DNA of 64,000 nucleotides from Acidobacteriota bacterium (GTDB lineage: Bacteria > Acidobacteriota > Terriglobia > Terriglobales > SCQP01), in the NCBI GenBank assembly GCA_004299485.1, contig SCQP01000016.1:314996-378995 (forward strand), read 5' to 3'. Made by a program: the position numbers and the translations under genes. This document shows positions 1-51,492 of this stretch, piece by piece. Numbering within the stretch: the first letter of the stretch is position 1; every line of letters starts with the position of its first letter. The notes under the pieces were generated by a model. That model worked only from the letters and a program-made list of their open reading frames with translations. It searched no databases and was not told the DNA's origin.

Positions 1-1
1 C

Positions 2-3000
2 GCCCAGCAGCTCACCGTGAAACCCATCGCGGGCGGCGGACCCAACGCCATGCCGGCGCTGAAGGCCAATTTCATCGCCGGGGTGACGGGACTGGCGGGC
101 GACGCGGCCGGCAACCTGTACATCTCCGACGTGAACCACGTGTTCCGCATGGACAACAGCGGCAACCTGACGCTGCTGGCGGGCACCGGCGCCACCCATG
201 TCTGCGCCAACACGGCATCCGACCCCTGCCCGGGCGCGGTCCGGAGCGGGGCGGCGACGGAAGCGACGTTGTCGAACGTCGCGGCCATCGCGGCCGACAG
301 CGGCGGGGACGTGTACGTCGCCGACTATCTCGACAATGTCGTGTGGAAGATTGACACGGCGGGCAAGATCAGCGTATTCGCCGGCACGGGCGTGGCCGGA
401 TACAGCGGCGATGGGGGAGCGGCGAATCAGGCCCAGTTGCTGGGGCCGCAGGGCGTGGCGGTGGACGGGGCCGGAGACGTGTTCATCGTCGCCGGCGGGG
501 CCAACGGCGTTGCCGCGCATGTGCGCGAGGTCAGCGCGGCGGGCGTGATGTCGACCGTGGCCGGGGGCGGAGGCGCCACGCAGGCGCTGGCGTACCCGTA
601 CGCGTCCATCAGCGCGGTGGCGGCGGACGGCAGCGGGCATCTGTATGTTACCGATTTGGGGAGCCCGACGGCGTTCCCGACCCTCACCCAGATCACGCTG
701 GCCAACGGCAACGTGACTGTAGTCGCCGGTGGCGGCACGGTGGCGCCGGCGGCCGGGGCCACCGCCACCAAGGTCAGCCTTTCGGGCCTGCTGGGCGACA
801 GCGTGGACAGCGCGGGCAATGTGTATTTCGCCACGTCGACGGCCCAGGGCGGCCTGTGGGAGATCGCAGCGGGGAGCAGCACGTTGACGCAGGTGATCGC
901 GGCTCCGAACACGTTTTTGGGCGCCATCTACGTCAGCGCGGCGGGCAAACTGTATGTGGGCGAAAACATGCAGGTGTATGAGGCCGCGGCGGGCGGGGCA
1001 AGCGCGCTGGTGGCGGGGAACGGCAACGCCTACGACTCGTTTATCCACGCACAGGCCTCCGATCCGATCTACCCGGCCCTGAACACGGCGCTGGATCCGG
1101 CGGCGGCGTGGTCGGACGGCAGTGGCAACGTGTACGTGGCGACGTATAGAGACAACGACAGCGGGAAACCGGGACGGCTGAGCCTGGTCACTCCGGACGG
1201 CAATATCGCCCAGATCGCGGGCGGCACACCGATGGTGAACCCGGCGGCGGTGGCGGCGAACGCCGCGGGCACGCTGTTTGTGGCCGACAACCTGACCTCG
1301 ACGGTGTACGCGATTACGCCGGCAGGGGTGGTCAGCGCGTACGCGGGCAACGGCAAGACCGGATTCAGCGGGGACGGCGGCGCGGCAACGAGCGCGCAAC
1401 TGGCCAACCCGAACGCGCTGGCGATTGACGGCGCGGGGAACTTGTACATCGGCGATTCGTCGAACCACGACGTGCGGCGGGTGGACGCCAAGACGGGGGT
1501 CATCACGACGGTCGCCGGCATTGTGGGCAGCGGCACCGACAGCGGGGACGGCGGCGCGGCGACGGCGGCGACGTTCAACGGACCGTGGGCGGTCGCGCTG
1601 GACGGGGCAGGAAACCTGTATATCGGCGACAGCAACAATCCGTACGCGGCGGTGACGGCGGCGGACGTGAGCGGGCGGATTCGCGAGGTGAACGCCAAGA
1701 CGGGCATCATCACGACGGTCGCCGGTTGCGCATGCGGCACGCAGGGAGCGGGGGACGGAGCGGCGGCGACGGCGGCCACGCTGGGTCCGATCGGCGGGGT
1801 GGCGGTGGACGGCGCGGGAAACCTGTACATCGCCGACGCGTTCAACGCCAAAATCCGCGAAGTGATCGCCGCCAGCGGCAACATCGTGACACTGGCCGGA
1901 AACGGGGTGGACAACTACAGCACGGGGACCGGCGTGGCGGCGCAGACCGAGATCGGCGAGCCGATGATGCCGCAACTGGACGCCAAGGGGAACCTGTATT
2001 TTGTAGAACGCAACTCGCACCGCGTTCTGGAGGTGGTCAACGCGGTGGGGGTTCCGGTGGCGTCGGGCGCGAGCCTGACGTTTGCGGCCCAGGCGACCGG
2101 CACGACGAGCGCATCGCAGACGGTGACGTTTACGAATCCCGGCCTGGCGGCGGACGCCATCAGCGGGATCAGCGCCTCGGGGGACTTCAGCGAGAGCAAC
2201 AACTGCGGCACATCGCTGGCGCCGGGCGCCACCTGTACGGTGACGGTGACGTTCACGCCGGCGGCGCTCGGGACGCGGAGCGGCACGCTGGCGCTCGCGA
2301 CTAACCTCGGCGCCACCAGCGTGGCGCTGATCGGGACGGGCGCGGCGCCGGCGACGGCGGGACTGCTGAGCAGCGCGCTGAGCTTCGGGAGCCAGGCCAC
2401 GGGCACCACCAGCGGGGCCCAGACGATTACCGTGAGCAACGGCGGGGGCGTGCCGCTGAGCATCACTTCGATTAGCGTGACGGGGCCGTTCGCGCAGACC
2501 AACGGCTGCGGCTCGAGCGTGGCGGCGGGGGCGAGCTGCAGCGTCAGCGTGACCTTCAGCCCGACCGCAACCGGGGCGGCCAGCGGCGCGCTGACGATCA
2601 ACGACAGCGCGGCGGGCAGTCCGCAGACGGTCAGCCTGAGCGGCACCGGGATTGCGCCGGGCGTGGCGATTACGCCTTCGCAACTGGCGTTCGGCTCGGT
2701 CACGGTGGGCACGCCGAGCGCGGCGCTGGGCGTGACCATCGGCAACAGCGGCAGCAGCGCGCTGACGGTGAGCGCGGTGACGGCGAGCGGGGACTTCAGC
2801 GTGGCCGGCAGTTGCGCCACCATCCCCGTCAACGGGAGCTGCAGCCTGGCGGTGATTTTCACGCCGACGGCCACCGGCGCGCGCACCGGCACGTTGACGA
2901 TCACCGACAATGCGTCGAGCGGAACGCAGACGGTGCCGTTGAGCGGCACGGGCGCGGCGGCGGGCCTGAGCCTGACGCCGGCGAACCTGAGCTTCGCTCC

Positions 3001-6000
3001 GACGCTGGTCGGGACGAGCAGCCCGGCGCGGACGTTGACGCTGAGCAACAGCGGCACGACGGCGGTCAGTTCGCTGACGGTGACGGCGGTGGGCGCTTTC
3101 AGCGCCGCCAACAGTTGCGGGGCGACGTTGGCGGCCGGGGCGACGTGCACCCTTCAGGTGCAGTTCACGCCGCAGGTGAGCGGGGCCGAGAGCGGCGCGC
3201 TGGTGATCACCAGCAGCCTGGGCACGCAAGCGGTGGTACTGAGCGGAACGGGCGTGGCGCCGGGGGCGAACCTGAGCGTCGGCGCGCTGCAGTTCGGCGG
3301 CCAATTGAGCGGAACCAGCTCGCCGGCGCAGACCGTGGTGCTGACCAACAGCGGGACGGCGGCGTTGAGCATCACTTCCATCGCCGCCTCCAGCGGTTTC
3401 GCGGAAAGCAACAACTGCACCGGAGGAACGCTGGCGGTGGGGGCAAGCTGCGGCATCAATGTCAGCTTCGCTCCGAGCTCCACGGGCCCGGTGACCGGCA
3501 CGCTGACCGTCACGGCAGGCGGCACGGTGCAGACGGTGGCGCTGAGCGGGCAGGGCACGGCGCCCGGCCTGGCGCTGACGCCGCCGTCGCTGGCCTTCGG
3601 CGCCCAGGCGGTGGGCACGGCCTCGCAGGCGCAGACCATCCTGGTGAGCAACAACGGCACGGCCGCCGCGACGCTGAGCTCGATCAGCGCCAGCGGCGAC
3701 TACACGCTGGTGAGCGGCTGCTCGACGACGGCGCCGCTGGCGCCGGGCGCGAGTTGCCCGGTTTCGGTCACCTTCACGCCGTCGGCCGGGGGAGCGCGGG
3801 CCGGCGCGGTGGTGCTCAGCGGCACGGGCGGGCTGGGGAGCCTGGCCACGCTGAGCGGCACCGGGACCCAGCCGGGGATCCTGGCCAGTCCGGCGCAGTT
3901 GTCGTTCGGCAGCCAGACGGTGGGCGCGCCGAGCAATCCGCAAACCGTCACGATCAGCAACACCGGGAGCGCACCGTTGAGCTTGAGCGGCATCGCGGCG
4001 AGCGGCGACTTCAGCGCGGCGACGACGTGCGGCAGCTCGCTGGCGGCAGGCGCCAACTGCGTCATCAACGTCACGATGAACGCCACGACGACAGGAACAC
4101 GCACGGGCACGCTGAACCTGTATGACAGCGTGGACGGGCTGCATCCGATCGCGCTGACGGGGGTGGGCGTGGCGGCGGGGGCGAGCCTGTCGCCCAGCGC
4201 GCTGGCCTTCGGGAGCCAGCCGATCCCGGGCGCCAACGCGGCGCTGACGGGAGCCCCGCAGACCGTGGTGCTGACCAACTCGGGCACGGCGGTGCTGAGC
4301 ATTCAGTTCATCGCGGTGAGCGGGGAGTTCACAGCGTCCTCGACGTGCGGCGCCTCCCTGGCCGCCGGCGCCAGTTGCAGCATCGCGGTGACGTTTGCGC
4401 CCGTGCTGCAAGGCCATCAGACGGGGGCGCTGACCATCACCGACTCCGCCGGCACGCAGGCGGTGTCGCTGGCCGGTGACGGCAGTCCGAACGGGCTGGT
4501 GCTGAGCCCCTCGGTGCTGAACTTCGGCGGCGTGACGGTGGGACAGCCCAGCCAGCCGCAGACGGCGACGCTGACCAACAACAGCGGCCTGGCCATCAAC
4601 AGCCTGGTCATCACAGCCTCGGGCGAGTTCAGCCAGACCAACACCTGCTCGACGGGCCTGGCCGCGAGCGCCAGTTGCACTATCAATATCACGCTGACGC
4701 CGGCCCTGGCGGGTCCGCTGACGGGAGCGATCTCGTTCACGGGCGCGCTGGCGAGCAGCGCGTCGAACCCGGCCCTGACGATGCGGGCGCGCCGCCTGGC
4801 GGCCGCCAGAGGATCGAGTTCGCTGGCCGTGGTCGCCATGGCGGGCAGCGGCGGATCGGCGTCGCTGACCACCACGCCGACGTCGCTGAGCTTCGGCTCG
4901 GAACCGGTGGGCACGGCAAGCGCGGCGCAGACCGTGAAGCTGACCAACGGCGGCACGGTGGCGGTGAGCGGCTTGACGATCGTGTCGACGCCGGATTTCC
5001 CCTTCACCACGACCTGCACGAGCACGCTGGCGGCCGGAGCCAATTGCAGCGTGGCCGTCACGTTCGATCCCACGGCCAGCGGACAGCGCACCGGATCGCT
5101 CAACATCACCGCTTCGGGCGGCCTGACGGCCCAGGTGGCGATGGTGGGCGCGGCCGGCGCCGCGGCCCCCCAGTTGATGGTTTCGCCGACGTCACTGACG
5201 TTTGCCAGCGAGTTGACCGGATCCACCAGCAGCGCGCAAACGGTGACGCTGAACAATCAGAGCAACTCGGCGATCTCCATTGCGGGCATCACTGCCTCGG
5301 GCGACTTTGCCACCACCAACACGTGCGGAAGTTCGCTGGCCGCCGGCGCCAGTTGCACCGCCGCGGTGACGTTCACTCCCACGGCCACGGGCAGCCGCAG
5401 CGGCACGCTGACGGTGACCTACGGCGGATCGAACACGCAAACGGTGTCGCTGAGCGGCACCGGGAGCGCGCTGACTGCGAGCATCGCCAGCGGCTCGTCG
5501 AACACGGCGAGCGTGACGGCGGGCGGAACGGCTTCCTACGGGCTGGTGTTCACGCCGTCGGCAGGGGCGAGCGGCTCGTTCAGCGTGAGCTGCGCCGGCG
5601 CGCCCCAGGGCGTCAATTGCACGGCGGCGCCGACCAGCTTCACAATCTCGGGTACCCAAGCGGCGGCGGTAACGGTCACAGTCGTCACGACGGCGCGGGG
5701 GAGCCGCGCCGTGCCGCCGCCGGATGCGCCGGCGGGCTGGCCACCGGCCGCCAACTGGGCGCTTGGCGCGCTCGGGCTGTTGCTGCTGGCGGGTTGGCTG
5801 GGGCTGCGCGGACGGGCGCGGCGCCGGCTGGTTGCGGGGATCGGCTTCTGCGCGCTGAGCCTGATGGTGGCGTGCGGCGGCGGGGCCGGGAGCGGCGGGA
5901 GCAGCTCGACGTCGGGCACACCGGCGGGCACCTATACGTTGACGGTTACCGCCAGCGGCACGAGCGGCAATGCTGTGCAGAAGCTGACGCTGATCGTGCA

Positions 6001-6004
6001 GTAG
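2..6004 (+). CDS. Giant cell-surface protein, 5'-truncated by the window edge: NHL-type beta-propeller repeats followed by 11 tandem Ig-like (ASH/HYDIN-like, 'choice-of-anchor D'-type) modules and C-terminal hydrophobic segments
   Basis: The frame is open to position 2 and there is no signal peptide, so the start lies off-window. The first ~670 aa carry repeated 'GDGGAA..A.L..P.GVAVD.AGNLYIAD' NHL-like blades. The 11 modules follow the pattern 'L.FG.Q.VGT.S..Q.VTL.N.G...L.I..I.ASGDF...N.CG..LAAGASC...VTF.P...G.R.G.L'. Two hydrophobic stretches lie near the C-terminus. Confidence 0.85.
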   Translation, partial: AQQLTVKPIAGGGPNAMPALKANFIAGVTGLAGDAAGNLYISDVNHVFRMDNSGNLTLLAGTGATHVCANTASDPCPGAVRSGAATEATLSNVAAIAADSGGDVYVADYLDNVVWKIDTAGKISVFAGTGVAGYSGDGGAANQAQLLGPQGVAVDGAGDVFIVAGGANGVAAHVREVSAAGVMSTVAGGGGATQALAYPYASISAVAADGSGHLYVTDLGSPTAFPTLTQITLANGNVTVVAGGGTVAPAAGATATKVSLSGLLGDSVDSAGNVYFATSTAQGGLWEIAAGSSTLTQVIAAPNTFLGAIYVSAAGKLYVGENMQVYEAAAGGASALVAGNGNAYDSFIHAQASDPIYPALNTALDPAAAWSDGSGNVYVATYRDNDSGKPGRLSLVTPDGNIAQIAGGTPMVNPAAVAANAAGTLFVADNLTSTVYAITPAGVVSAYAGNGKTGFSGDGGAATSAQLANPNALAIDGAGNLYIGDSSNHDVRRVDAKTGVITTVAGIVGSGTDSGDGGAATAATFNGPWAVALDGAGNLYIGDSNNPYAAVTAADVSGRIREVNAKTGIITTVAGCACGTQGAGDGAAATAATLGPIGGVAVDGAGNLYIADAFNAKIREVIAASGNIVTLAGNGVDNYSTGTGVAAQTEIGEPMMPQLDAKGNLYFVERNSHRVLEVVNAVGVPVASGASLTFAAQATGTTSASQTVTFTNPGLAADAISGISASGDFSESNNCGTSLAPGATCTVTVTFTPAALGTRSGTLALATNLGATSVALIGTGAAPATAGLLSSALSFGSQATGTTSGAQTITVSNGGGVPLSITSISVTGPFAQTNGCGSSVAAGASCSVSVTFSPTATGAASGALTINDSAAGSPQTVSLSGTGIAPGVAITPSQLAFGSVTVGTPSAALGVTIGNSGSSALTVSAVTASGDFSVAGSCATIPVNGSCSLAVIFTPTATGARTGTLTITDNASSGTQTVPLSGTGAAAGLSLTPANLSFAPTLVGTSSPARTLTLSNSGTTAVSSLTVTAVGAFSAANSCGATLAAGATCTLQVQFTPQVSGAESGALVITSSLGTQAVVLSGTGVAPGANLSVGALQFGGQLSGTSSPAQTVVLTNSGTAALSITSIAASSGFAESNNCTGGTLAVGASCGINVSFAPSSTGPVTGTLTVTAGGTVQTVALSGQGTAPGLALTPPSLAFGAQAVGTASQAQTILVSNNGTAAATLSSISASGDYTLVSGCSTTAPLAPGASCPVSVTFTPSAGGARAGAVVLSGTGGLGSLATLSGTGTQPGILASPAQLSFGSQTVGAPSNPQTVTISNTGSAPLSLSGIAASGDFSAATTCGSSLAAGANCVINVTMNATTTGTRTGTLNLYDSVDGLHPIALTGVGVAAGASLSPSALAFGSQPIPGANAALTGAPQTVVLTNSGTAVLSIQFIAVSGEFTASSTCGASLAAGASCSIAVTFAPVLQGHQTGALTITDSAGTQAVSLAGDGSPNGLVLSPSVLNFGGVTVGQPSQPQTATLTNNSGLAINSLVITASGEFSQTNTCSTGLAASASCTINITLTPALAGPLTGAISFTGALASSASNPALTMRARRLAAARGSSSLAVVAMAGSGGSASLTTTPTSLSFGSEPVGTASAAQTVKLTNGGTVAVSGLTIVSTPDFPFTTTCTSTLAAGANCSVAVTFDPTASGQRTGSLNITASGGLTAQVAMVGAAGAAAPQLMVSPTSLTFASELTGSTSSAQTVTLNNQSNSAISIAGITASGDFATTNTCGSSLAAGASCTAAVTFTPTATGSRSGTLTVTYGGSNTQTVSLSGTGSALTASIASGSSNTASVTAGGTASYGLVFTPSAGASGSFSVSCAGAPQGVNCTAAPTSFTISGTQAAAVTVTVVTTARGSRAVPPPDAPAGWPPAANWALGALGLLLLAGWLGLRGRARRRLVAGIGFCALSLMVACGGGAGSGGSSSTSGTPAGTYTLTVTASGTSGNAVQKLTLIVQ
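2054..5470 (+). repeat. Intragenic tandem array of 11 ~97-aa (~290-nt) Ig-like modules, each with two conserved Cys
   Basis: I counted the modules directly in the translation, from 'ASLTFAAQATGTTSASQTVTF...' to '...TQTVSLSGTGSA'. The periodic motif is SGDF..N.CG..LAAGA.C...VTF.P. Confidence 0.8.
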
Positions 6005-6274
6005 GCGGCCGGCAAGGTGGCACGGCCACCTCTTGCTGGAGCCGCCCTCCCGGTGGTCGGGCTGTGGCCGAGCGTCGCTCCCCGGCAACGGACGCCCGCT
6101 GGCGCTCGGGGCGTCTCCAAGTTGCCGCGTTAAGTGAACGCCATCGGGGGAGCGCCGATCATCCAATAGTTGGTTGAGCGATAGCCGACGTTGACGATGG
6201 GTGGCGGCATGAGCGGATTCTGTCGGGAAATGCGGCTTTGCCGCAGCGGACTATACTGACGGCAAGGAGGAGAT

Positions 6275-7759: not shown

Positions 7760-7786
7760 CCTTCCGCGGAAGGGGTTTTGTTGTTT
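7760..7786 (+). terminator. Intrinsic terminator after the Rieske gene
   Basis: Hairpin CCTTCC-GC-GGAAGG is followed by GGTTTTGTTGTTT, 15 nt after the stop codon. Confidence 0.6.
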
Positions 7787-7991
7787 GCCTTTCTCAATTG
7801 CGAAACCGAAGGAGGACGGCGGCAGGAACGCAACGGAAGGAAACTCGAGGTGCAGGCGTGCGTGTGGCGGGCTGGACAGCGGTGCGAGGTTCTTGCCGTC
7901 TCCCTCGCTTTACGGCGCCCCCGGGGCCGGTAAAATCGGCCGCCAGAACAACCCGGGGAGCCGACAGAGCAGCCCGCCCACCGGCGATAGC

Positions 7992-12095: not shown

Positions 12096-12124
12096 AAGGC
12101 CGTCCCGCCGAGCGGGACGGCCTT
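12096..12124 (+). terminator. 13-bp hairpin downstream of the NYN gene (weak T-tract), extendable to 12086..12138
   Basis: AAGGCCGTCCCGC-CGAG-GCGGGACGGCCTT is followed by GTTGCTGTTG. Confidence 0.5.
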
Positions 12125-12230
12125 GTTGCTGTTGCAGCCTGGGCTTTGCTTCATCGCGGGCGCCCAGCGCGGCTGTCCCGCCGCGCGGCCCGCTCCCAAA
12201 GGCCGCCAAGCCGCTCCGCCGGCGGTAGCT

Positions 12231-12328
12231 TGGAGGAGCCCTGAGCGCCAACAGGCGGACCCTGCCGGCAATCGAAGCCCGCACCCCCAGCGACCATCGG
12301 GAGCGACCCGGGCAAAAAGTGGCGAGCC
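12231..12328 (-). repeat. Interspersed ~110-bp element, copy A (inverted relative to the other copies)
   Basis: The reverse complement aligns along its length with copies at 14990, 27584 and 51363: 'ggctcgccactttttgcccgggtcgctcccgatggtcgct...gcgggcttcgatt.ccggcagggtccgcc...gggctcctccaagctaccgcc'. Confidence 0.75.
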
Positions 12329-12361
12329 CCCGGGGGCCCCTTGCCCCGGCTTCGCTTCAGC

Positions 12362-12396
12362 AAAAAAAATGGCCGTCCCGCCGAGCGGGACGGCCT
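12362..12396 (-). terminator. Intrinsic terminator of the exported-protein gene 12423..13064
   Basis: On the minus strand, GGCCGTCCCGC-TCGG-GCGGGACGGCC is followed by ATTTTTTTTG. Confidence 0.7.
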
Positions 12397-12422
12397 TGTT
12401 GCTGTTGCAGCCTAGCGAATCT

Positions 12423-14082: not shown

Positions 14083-14123
14083 GTGGCTCGCCACTTTTTG
14101 CCCTGGTCGCTCCCGTTGGTCGC
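14083..14123 (+). repeat. Interspersed element, truncated copy B (first ~41 nt only)
   Basis: 'gtggctcgccactttttgccctggtcgctcccgttggtcgc' is identical to the 5' part of copy D. It fills the 46-nt gap between convergent genes. Confidence 0.6.
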
Positions 14124-14128
14124 ATAGA

Positions 14129-15001
14129 TCAACGGACAAGCCAAGCCGCGGCGGCCTGCGCATCAGCGGGAGTGGCCTGAGCCGGTAAGCGGGCGGCGGG
14201 GAGTTCGGCACCGGCGAGTAGCGGGCCCGCCCAAGGCACCTTCAGCGTCAGCAATGCGGCGGCAAATTCATCGCGCGCCAATTGGGGAATAAAGAGAACG
14301 GGCGCAGCCGCGCCGGTATGGCGGCGGATTTCGGCCAGCAGGGCGGCGGCCTGGAGCCCGCCGTCGCGGAAGAACAGGGGACTGTAAAGCGAGATCGGCT
14401 GCACCGGCGCGCGCGCGGCTAAGGTGGCAAGAAACGCGGGCGCGGGCGGGCGGCGGGTGACCGCGCTACCCAGAAAGCTGACTACCGCGGCCACCGCCGG
14501 CTGCGCCTGCAGACGGGCAAATTCCGCAACGGCACCGCACAGTTGCTCCGCGGCCAGTGACACGTTTCCGGCCGGCGGCATTTCCCACCAGGCAAAGCAT
14601 TCCGAGGGCGTTTCCGGATGGCCTCCCAGCCAGAGCTCGGTACAGACCTGCCGGTTTCGTGGTTCCAGCAGTTGCCAGGCCGCAGTCGCGGGTGCGGTGT
14701 CATCCAAAAGCACGCCGTCGGCCCGGCGATCCAAGGCCGCTAATACCGCGCGCAGTGAGGGAGATTGCAGCGCCGCGGCGGCTTCGGCAGGCGTCGCGCC
14801 GGCACCCTGGCGGCGCTCCAGCCAGAGTCGGCGCCAGCGCTCGCGCTCGCGCTCGTCGCCGGGCACGGCGGGGCTGAGGACCTCGACGGACGCCGCGGCC
14901 AGCAGCGGGCGCAGAGATTCGGGCGCGGCGAGGCGGAAGGGAGCCACGAAGGCGAGTGTACAACAGCCGCAGCTCCGGAACTCCGCAGAGTGGCTCGCCA
15001 C
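14129..15001 (-). CDS. Hypothetical protein with weak resemblance to the phosphate acyltransferase (PTA_PTB) fold
   Basis: The ORF is long with plausible amino-acid composition. 'LRAVLAALDRRADGVLLD' and 'AVAAVVSFLGS' loosely recall Pta motifs. The first 4 codons lie inside repeat copy C, so the true start may be the GTG at 14947. Confidence 0.5.
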   Translation of the reverse strand: MASHSAEFRSCGCCTLAFVAPFRLAAPESLRPLLAAASVEVLSPAVPGDERERERWRRLWLERRQGAGATPAEAAAALQSPSLRAVLAALDRRADGVLLDDTAPATAAWQLLEPRNRQVCTELWLGGHPETPSECFAWWEMPPAGNVSLAAEQLCGAVAEFARLQAQPAVAAVVSFLGSAVTRRPPAPAFLATLAARAPVQPISLYSPLFFRDGGLQAAALLAEIRRHTGAAAPVLFIPQLARDEFAAALLTLKVPWAGPLLAGAELPAARLPAQATPADAQAAAAWLVR

Positions 15002-15098
15002 TATTTGCCCGGGTCGCTCCCGTTGGTCGCTTGGAGTGCGGGCTTCGATTCCCGGCAGGGTCCGCCCGCTGGCGCTCCGGGCTCCTCCAAGCTGCCTC
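14990..15098 (+). repeat. Interspersed ~110-bp element, copy C
   Basis: It aligns end-to-end with copies D and E and lies between two minus-strand genes. Confidence 0.75.
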
Positions 15099-15100
15099 CC

Positions 15101-27538: not shown

Positions 27539-27571
27539 GCGGAGCGGCTCCGGCCGCTCCGCTTTTTGTTT
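27539..27571 (+). terminator. Intrinsic terminator of 27056..27514
   Basis: GCGGAGCGGC-TCCG-GCCGCTCCGC is followed by TTTTTGTTT. Confidence 0.75.
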
Positions 27572-27583
27572 CAGGCCAGCGCG

Positions 27584-27693
27584 GTGGCTCGCCACTTTTT
27601 GCCCTGGTCGCTCCCGTTGGTCGCTCGGAGTGCGGGCTTCGATTCCCGGCAGGGTCCGCCCGCTGGCGCCCAGGGCTCCTCCAAGCTGCCGCC
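27584..27693 (+). repeat. Interspersed ~110-bp element, copy D
   Basis: 'gtggctcgccactttttgccctggtcgctcccgttggtcgctcggagtgcgggcttcgattcccggcagggtccgcccgctggcgcccagggctcctccaagctgccgcc'. Confidence 0.8.
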
Positions 27694-27744
27694 ATAGGCG
27701 TCAGGCTTCGCGGTACTGAAATACTGACGTTCTGAAATACGGCT

Positions 27745-51362: not shown

Positions 51363-51472
51363 GTGGCTCGCCACTTTTTGCCCTGGTCGCTCCCGATGGT
51401 CGCTTGGAGTGCGGGCTTCGATTCCCGGCAGGGCCCGTCCGCTGGCGTTCAGGGCTCCTCCAAGCTACCGCC
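51363..51472 (+). repeat. Interspersed ~110-bp element, copy E
   Basis: It aligns with copies C and D and ends 20 nt upstream of the acyltransferase ATG. Confidence 0.8.
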
Positions 51473-51492
51473 AAATCAGGCATGTACGTTCA

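Follow-up and report, generated by a model that had tools for sequence, protein, structure and literature searches.

Small non-autonomous repeats are common, and the mode of movement is mostly unknown, as in the case of the RPEs, ERIC and many REP-like families. The MITEs (Correia, ERIC, RUP) are small repeats of this kind, which often lie within operons and are sometimes fused in frame, and they are defined by terminal inverted repeats (TIRs) together with target-site duplications (TSDs). The IS91/ISCR elements have neither TIRs nor TSDs and are characterised by one fixed end and by variable termination at look-alike sites; the target of IS91 is GTTC/CTTG. Elements of the IS200/IS605 family and the PATEs likewise lack TIRs and TSDs, contain strand-specific subterminal hairpins, use a tetra- or pentanucleotide target on the 5' side and carry their active strand on the lagging-strand template (PMC5027513). 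That Y1 HUH transposases target the lagging strand is established (PMC5027513, PMC6006769). REP sequences and REPINs are high-copy intergenic palindromes of 20–40 nt or inverted doublets thereof with a GT[AG]G hairpin foot, which form subfamilies in individual genomes as well as across genomes and presumably undergo processing as single-stranded DNA (ssDNA) (PMC6006769). Finally, the RPEs are single palindromes of ~100–150 bp without a known transposase, which occur between genes as well as in frame within unrelated genes, adding a peptide segment to the product, and about half of the copies are genic in some RPE families (PMC10969869).

Here we describe a repeat family from the genome of an uncultured member of the Terriglobales (3.3 Mb on 22 contigs, 64.6% G+C, 98.8% complete), starting from a stretch of 64,000 nucleotides (C14:314996-378995), which we refer to as the window. 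The element is lineage-specific and, to our knowledge, undescribed, and a literature search on such repeats in Acidobacteria retrieved no description. By analogy, it appears closest to the RPEs (PMC10969869) in its behaviour and to the single-strand elements of the REP/IS200 type in its inferred mechanism, but it fails the defining tests of MITE, REP/RAYT, PATE and IS91-passenger membership. It differs from the RPEs in belonging to another phylum, in having no sequence in common with them, in its asymmetric, multi-hairpin architecture and in its low proportion of genic copies (~4%). Compared to REP sequences and REPINs, it is long (111 nt in the main subfamily) and contains three different hairpins, and there is no RAYT gene in the genome; compared to MITEs, both the TIRs and the duplications are absent. 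The label "REP/MITE-like", which had been given to the repeat in an earlier, sequence-only reading of the window, is appropriate in kind for a high-copy, sharply bounded and lineage-specific element without TIRs. The family shows unusually clear footprints, namely a single-strand fold with covariation, an orientation linked to replication and not to transcription, one fixed and one slipping end, a one-base target and a length that is always a multiple of three (3n). Together they allow ideas on the movement of such elements to be tested in the Acidobacteria, a dominant and poorly studied soil phylum. For the assembly, binning and strain typing of these genomes, the element is a nuisance as well as a marker.

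The extents of the copies in the window were set by a covariance model and BLAST (Table 1). Four full copies in the window belong to the main subfamily F1, a fifth copy is a short form of 41 nt, and a sixth is a diverged member of subfamily F2. The F1 copies show 91–95% mutual identity over ~111 nt, which is far beyond chance. The five stretches listed in the sequence-only reading are all present where they had been placed, but this list overlooked the diverged sixth copy and is a large undercount of the family, since whole-genome BLAST retrieved 119 full and 22 partial copies of F1 (111 nt) alone. F2 (114 nt) yielded 12 full and 12 partial matches, and six of the latter 12 represent the 5' halves of copies of F3 (153 nt), which equals F2 plus one further perfect hairpin and is present in ~8 copies. 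F2 and F3 together amount to ~40 copies, and the genome contains the element about 160 times. We distinguished 25 sequence clusters (subfamilies), and each species has subfamilies of its own.

Table 1. Copies of the element in the window, hairpins of copy D and neighbouring features (positions refer to the window).
Feature	Position	Strand	Remarks
Full F2 element, 114 nt	6017..6130	+	C14:321012-321125; diverged, ~73% identity
Copy A, full F1	12220..12330	-	Inverted orientation
Copy B, 41-nt short form	14083..14123	+	Element positions 1-41, ends GGTCGC
Copy C, full F1	14990..15100	+	3' end abuts stop codon of minus-strand AIRS-family gene
Intrinsic terminator (hairpin and T-run)	27539..27562	+	Upstream of copy D, outside the element
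Copy D, full F1, 111 nt	27584..27694	+	C14:342579-342689; 98% identity to F1 consensus
P1, 5'-terminal hairpin GTGG-CTCG-CCAC, then T5	27584..27595	+	Element positions 1-12
P2, central hairpin GC(TC)CC-GNT-GG(TC)GC	27610..27624	+	Element positions 27-41; conserved 2x2 internal loop
P3, long 3' hairpin	27647..27691	+	Element positions 64-108; P3a CGGCAG/CTGCCG and P3b GGTCCGCCC/GGGCTCCTC
3' flank TAGG of copy D	27695..27698	+	NNNG instance (G at +4)
Copy E, full F1	51363..51473	+	Between divergent decarboxylase and acyltransferase genes

The edges of the element are sharp, as an alignment of the F1 copies with their flanks shows that conservation falls from 90–100% to background exactly at the 5' GTGGC and at the 3' GCCGCC-A. 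No TIRs were detected, since the GTGGCTCGCCAC... and ...AAGCTGCCGCCA ends are not complementary and no inverted pair occurs within the copies, and the flanks of the 119 F1 copies have nothing in common that would indicate a target-site duplication. The previous statements that the repeat lacks TIRs and that no transposase is nearby were both correct, and the recurring pseudo-peptide that had been attributed to translation of the element indeed corresponds to its -3 frame.

The neighbours of the window copies were identified by Pfam, which bears out the intergenic position assigned to these copies before. Copy A lies downstream of a NYN/OST-HTH gene, copy B starts directly after the stop codon of a FAD/NAD oxidoreductase gene, and copy C abuts the end of an AIR-synthase-family gene on the opposite strand. 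Copy D, which had been described as following a terminator, has this intrinsic terminator on one side and the 3' end of a gene for a MoxR ATPase on the other. Copy E is indeed located 20 nt 5' of the start of the acyltransferase gene, with a divergent pyridoxal-decarboxylase gene on its other side. We also observed a perfect 43-nt direct repeat at window positions 12098-12140 and 12371-12413, which contains a terminator-like hairpin (GGCCGTCCCGCCGAGCGGGACGGCC); its two copies are 273 nt apart, flank copy A at a distance and may represent a local duplication.

Because minimum-free-energy folding was uninformative, with Z-scores of 0.07 to -1.8 for single sequences at 69% G+C, which is no better than shuffles, the pairings were tested on the consensus sequences of independent subfamilies. 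Over the 25 subfamilies, a fold consisting of the three hairpins P1 to P3 showed 82.4% paired cells and 11 pairs in which both sides had changed (39 cells), compared to 32–55% paired cells in slid controls. Its covariation score was 0.194 vs. 0.115 for shuffles, and none of 500 shuffles was as good. P1 is a hairpin of 4–5 bp starting with GTGG (GCGG in 8 subfamilies) with 97% of the cells paired; 8 subfamilies have C:G in place of U:A, and one has A:U in place of G:C. The outer pair of P2 is switched from G:C to C:G in 4 subfamilies, and its internal loop turns into Watson-Crick pairs in diverged copies (L228, L233). P3 consists of P3a (consensus CGGCAR/YTGCCG, 91% paired) and P3b (GGGAYGCCC/GGGCRTCTC, 80% paired, with a 3x3 internal loop in F1) and ends in an apical loop of 11 nt; A:U is replaced by G:C in 8 subfamilies, and three pairs of P3b are changed on both sides. 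In addition, the modules inserted in the longer subfamilies are perfect hairpins with compensatory variation. Among the F1 copies themselves, the variability of paired positions was not significantly lower than that of unpaired ones (p=0.16). A G:U (G:T) wobble pair in P3 is conserved in 23 of the 25 subfamilies, and the fold therefore belongs to the plus strand only, either as RNA or as single-stranded DNA.

The sequence-only reading had likewise proposed a strand-specific, partly covarying structure, and this part stands on account of the conserved wobble and the 11 pairs with changes on both sides, but it does so in a different fold. The helices GCCCTGG/CCAGGGC and GCGGGC/GCCCGC suggested at that time showed 75.8% paired cells, which was matched or exceeded by 447 of 500 shuffles, and a single pair was changed on both sides. 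The covariation analysis thus supports P1, P2 and P3 instead of these helices. Regarding the change to G15011:C15078, which had been called compensatory, both bases are present in the sequence, but T22G and A89C are independent polymorphisms, which occur jointly in 4 of 127 F1 copies vs. 3.3 expected (Fisher p=0.74). Another alternative pairing (GCTTGGAG/CTCCAAGC) was found in F1 only and was dropped.

The plus strand of the element coincides with the G-rich strand in 109 of 138 full copies (79%), and the orientation follows the sign of the local GC skew in 104–109 of these copies at four different window sizes of the skew calculation (p<=2e-9), where GC skew is a mere proxy for the direction of replication in an assembly of 22 contigs with no leading-strand bias of the genes. 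The fragments are concordant with the skew in 27 of 35 cases. The genes themselves showed no co-orientation, as 50.2% of 1920 crude gene calls agreed with the skew; for a skew that reflects replication, this would be unusual. With regard to the genes, which were taken from our own crude gene calls, 24 copies between same-direction pairs are in sense and 42 in antisense orientation, 28 copies lie between convergent and 25 between divergent genes. The copies are clustered, and nearly all intergenic gaps of a region can hold one, all of them in the same orientation.

The sequence-only reading had proposed looking for a shared motif at the insertion sites, and such a motif exists on the 3' side: a G is present at position +4 in 92% of 89 F1 copies. 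This target signature, NNNG, applies to every subfamily and genus examined and also to the 41-nt short form. The 5' flank is random, without a conserved base at positions -15 to -1, and its sole signal is that C is rare at -1. We know of no report of either a replication-linked orientation or an NNNG target for the RPEs. Insertion at stop codons was considered as well, but the excess was merely slight (9 and 7 copies vs. ~3). Most fragments are 5' pieces which have kept the 5' end and lost the 3' end. At least nine short forms end exactly at position 41 with GGTCGC, each followed by NNNG, and this internal GGTCGC loosely resembles the true 3' end. One F2 copy is nested in a short form of F1, and the insert amounts to exactly 114 nt without any duplication.

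The consensus lengths of all 16 multi-copy subfamilies are divisible by three (105, 108, 111, 114, 132, 135, 153 or 174 nt), and in the alignment of the subfamilies, single indels comprise 1 or 2 nt and sum up to multiples of three. The consensus sequences have 3 to 6 open frames out of 6, and at least five in 12 of the 16 cases, vs. ~3.4 expected. An analysis of the coding potential of the regions flanking the F1 copies yielded no coding flank for 58, one for 40 and two for 21 copies. Although most copies are intergenic, ~4% of the total are genic. In-frame candidates were judged by eye from their translations, and 6 were accepted from 13 obtained automatically, 12 of which were inspected. 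The six convincing in-frame insertions affect RsmG, a hydrogenase maturation protease, ThiE, an acyl-CoA ligase, a FkbM methyltransferase and a PIG-L protein. The segments that the element adds to enzymes comprise 35–58 residues. The remaining candidates were rejected as spurious long GC-rich ORFs, e.g. one on C21, where the element is truly located upstream of an efflux adaptor gene. For ThiE, the orthologues in G013, G003, G009 and G006 are without the insert, and the gene is filled in frame here with a net gain of 36 residues and no duplication.

Extending the search to the whole genome and its relatives had been suggested before. With a covariance model built from the subfamily consensus sequences, one uncultured Terriglobales family gave matches in 21 of 28 genomes and in 3 of 7 genera, and all of the 300 further genomes examined from the class, which represent 131 other genera, were negative. 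The carriers are metagenome-assembled genomes (MAGs) of uncultured Terriglobales/Acidobacteria with tens of copies, and more than 130 in three genomes. None of 15 congeners carries a copy at the loci orthologous to three insertion sites of the window, and the regions were too diverged for an empty-site comparison in the intergenic DNA of congeners. For one gene from a cluster dense in copies, the relatives retrieved from metagenomes had at most 80% identity and no elements, and the synteny was lost. The F1 copies of the congener G013 (loci L002/L034) are 95–98% identical to the F1 consensus of the genome studied here, while an orthologous oxidoreductase gene shows only 82% identity, which suggests that an active source of the element may have been exchanged recently between species by horizontal spread. 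We also noticed chimeric copies in two genomes (L242:595 in G321 and L239:61 in G325), in which different tandem hairpin repeats (GGCGGAATTTCC...GGAAATTCC) have taken the place of the 5' half, with P3 and the NNNG flank retained. These chimeras suggest that hairpins are exchanged as modules.

We lean towards the view that the repeat is a non-autonomous mobile DNA element, specific to one uncultured Terriglobales family, which is processed as single-stranded DNA at replication forks. A putative enzyme resembling the HUH Y1/Y2 enzymes of IS200/IS605, REP/RAYT or IS91 would begin processing at the fixed 5' end and stop at the 3' end, or early at a pseudo-end, and the strand would then be pasted beside NNNG without a duplication. 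Most genic insertions would be removed by purifying selection, and some would survive owing to the frame-neutral length, which would hold the total length at 3n. Four traits agree with what has been established for HUH single-strand transposition at replication forks (PMC5027513, PMC6006769): each end has a hairpin that is strand-specific, TIRs and TSDs are lacking, the folding strand coincides with the presumed template of the lagging strand, and a fixed start is combined with a slipping stop. The last of these traits fits rolling-circle transposition of the IS91 type as well. The ~4% of genic copies, on the other hand, seem few to account for such strict 3n lengths and count against the ssDNA model.

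Candidates for a mobilising enzyme were searched for in the assembly and in congeners. Y1_Tnp (PF01797) gave no matches in the 98.8%-complete genome itself and was positive in 3 of 16 congeners. The only transposase-like element found in the assembly is located on contig C20 (2531 nt, outside the window), where a gene for a tyrosine recombinase (306 aa) is followed by one for a Zn-finger/Y2 HUH transposase (399 aa). This IS91-family unit is probably cut at the contig ends and is also present in G005; Y2_Tnp occurs in 2 of 16 congeners, and G005, which is one of them, has few copies of the element. No similarity or motif in common with the element was found on C20, where the ends of the unit may be missing from the contig, and no copy adjoins any of the Y1 or Y2 genes found. 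Self-BLAST of the assembly revealed no multi-copy insertion sequence. Genes enclosed by inverted pairs of the element were considered as sources of the enzyme, but by eye they are toxin-antitoxin, regulator and permease genes and not transposases; at C10:91192-92842 (outside the window), for example, two inverted copies enclose an Xre-antitoxin/RES-toxin-like pair and a HigA-like gene. Because MAG binning often loses insertion sequences and plasmids, the absence of the enzyme is weak evidence. Its gene probably resides on a mobile replicon or an insertion sequence missing from the metagenome bins. An enzyme outside the bins is in line with F1 being 98% identical between species vs. 82% for the orthologous gene.

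Among the known modes of single-strand movement, two may be considered for the element in a strict sense, both of which we regard as improbable. First, it could be of the REP/REPIN type and depend on a RAYT, or it could be a PATE of IS200/IS605 origin that relies on TnpA(Y1). In favour of this, the element has subterminal hairpins, neither TIRs nor TSDs and an orientation in agreement with the lagging-strand template, and P1 opens with GTGG at the foot of the 5' hairpin, similar to the GT[AG]G foot of REP sequences (PMC6006769). However, there is no Y1_Tnp gene in this genome, none of those in the 3 of 16 congeners lies beside an element, and no Y1 transposase correlates with it. Furthermore, the asymmetry of the element sets it apart from an inverted REP doublet, P1 bears no resemblance to P3, in contrast to the similar end hairpins of IS608, and the left end of the element lacks a conserved 5' target motif, the only conserved flanking base being the G four bases 3' of the element. 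Second, and with a similarly small chance, the element could travel as a non-autonomous passenger with the IS91-family rolling-circle transposon on C20, which has a Y2 HUH transposase and a tyrosine recombinase. A Y2 transposase is at least present in the genome, and rolling-circle transposition with one fixed end and a variable stop, again without TIRs or TSDs, fits the 5'-anchored fragments and the GGTCGC pseudo-end; but C20 contains neither an element-like sequence nor a motif of it, NNNG is unlike the IS91 target, and Y2_Tnp is missing from most element-rich genomes, being restricted to 2 of 16 congeners including the copy-poor G005. More weight, although we still hold it to be rather unlikely, is given to an undescribed class of mobile elements, in which a frame-neutral, strand-specific ssDNA with three unlike hairpins, a fixed start and a slipping stop would enter the lagging-strand template on the 5' side of NNNG and leave no duplication. 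Its mover would be neither a recognisable Y1/Y2 HUH transposase nor a DDE transposase and might be a host replication or repair protein. If this were true, the strict 3n lengths achieved via compensating indels would imply that the lineages regularly traverse coding sequence.

Two further explanations invoke RNA. A family of functional RNAs that spreads because of its usefulness, consisting either of small RNAs or of UTR modules that act in cis, e.g. as stabilisers or terminators, would account for the strand-specific covarying fold with its conserved G:U pair, for the many copies placed tightly between operon genes and for the resemblance of P1 and the following U5 in F1 to a weak terminator. 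We nevertheless give it little credence, because the random 5' flanks leave no common promoter, the orientation ignores the genes (24 sense, 42 antisense) and tracks replication instead, and conservation of the U-run does not extend to F2. Nor would RNA genes be expected to show species-specific bursts, 5' fragments, genic copies in frame or the 3n rule, and the earlier suggestion of a small-RNA module gained no support. Rfam contained no match to the element at gathering score over the whole window, and the E-value mode returned only noise at copy D (E>5). Specific versions of this explanation were rejected as well: GGGCTTCGATTCC...CCA looks T-loop-like, but ARAGORN was negative at all copies, arguing against an origin from tRNA or tmRNA, and P1 with T5 was dismissed as a terminator because the U-run is unconserved and sense copies downstream of genes are not enriched. 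A retroelement-like repeat, whose antisense transcript would serve as a template for reverse transcription from its 3' end at nicks or Okazaki gaps, with truncations arising from incomplete copying, seems very improbable to us. The truncated copies do always keep what corresponds to the 3' end of a minus-strand RNA, and retrotransposition of group II introns is likewise biased by replication. Yet the G:U wobble of the plus strand would give C-A mismatches in an RNA from the minus strand, a poly-A or primer-like tail is absent, and both ends of the element are exact. Processing of the element as single-stranded DNA remains the reading we prefer.

Apart from the copies of the element, two further features of the window were recorded. 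The first 6004 positions (1-6004, +) contain the 3' portion of a gene whose product exceeds 2000 residues and has NHL-like repeats together with at least nine tandem domains of ~100 residues each, which correspond to a DNA period of 300–306 nt. At positions 7761-7839 (+), Rfam identified a CyVA-1 RNA motif with 42.5 bits, just over the gathering score of 41.4.
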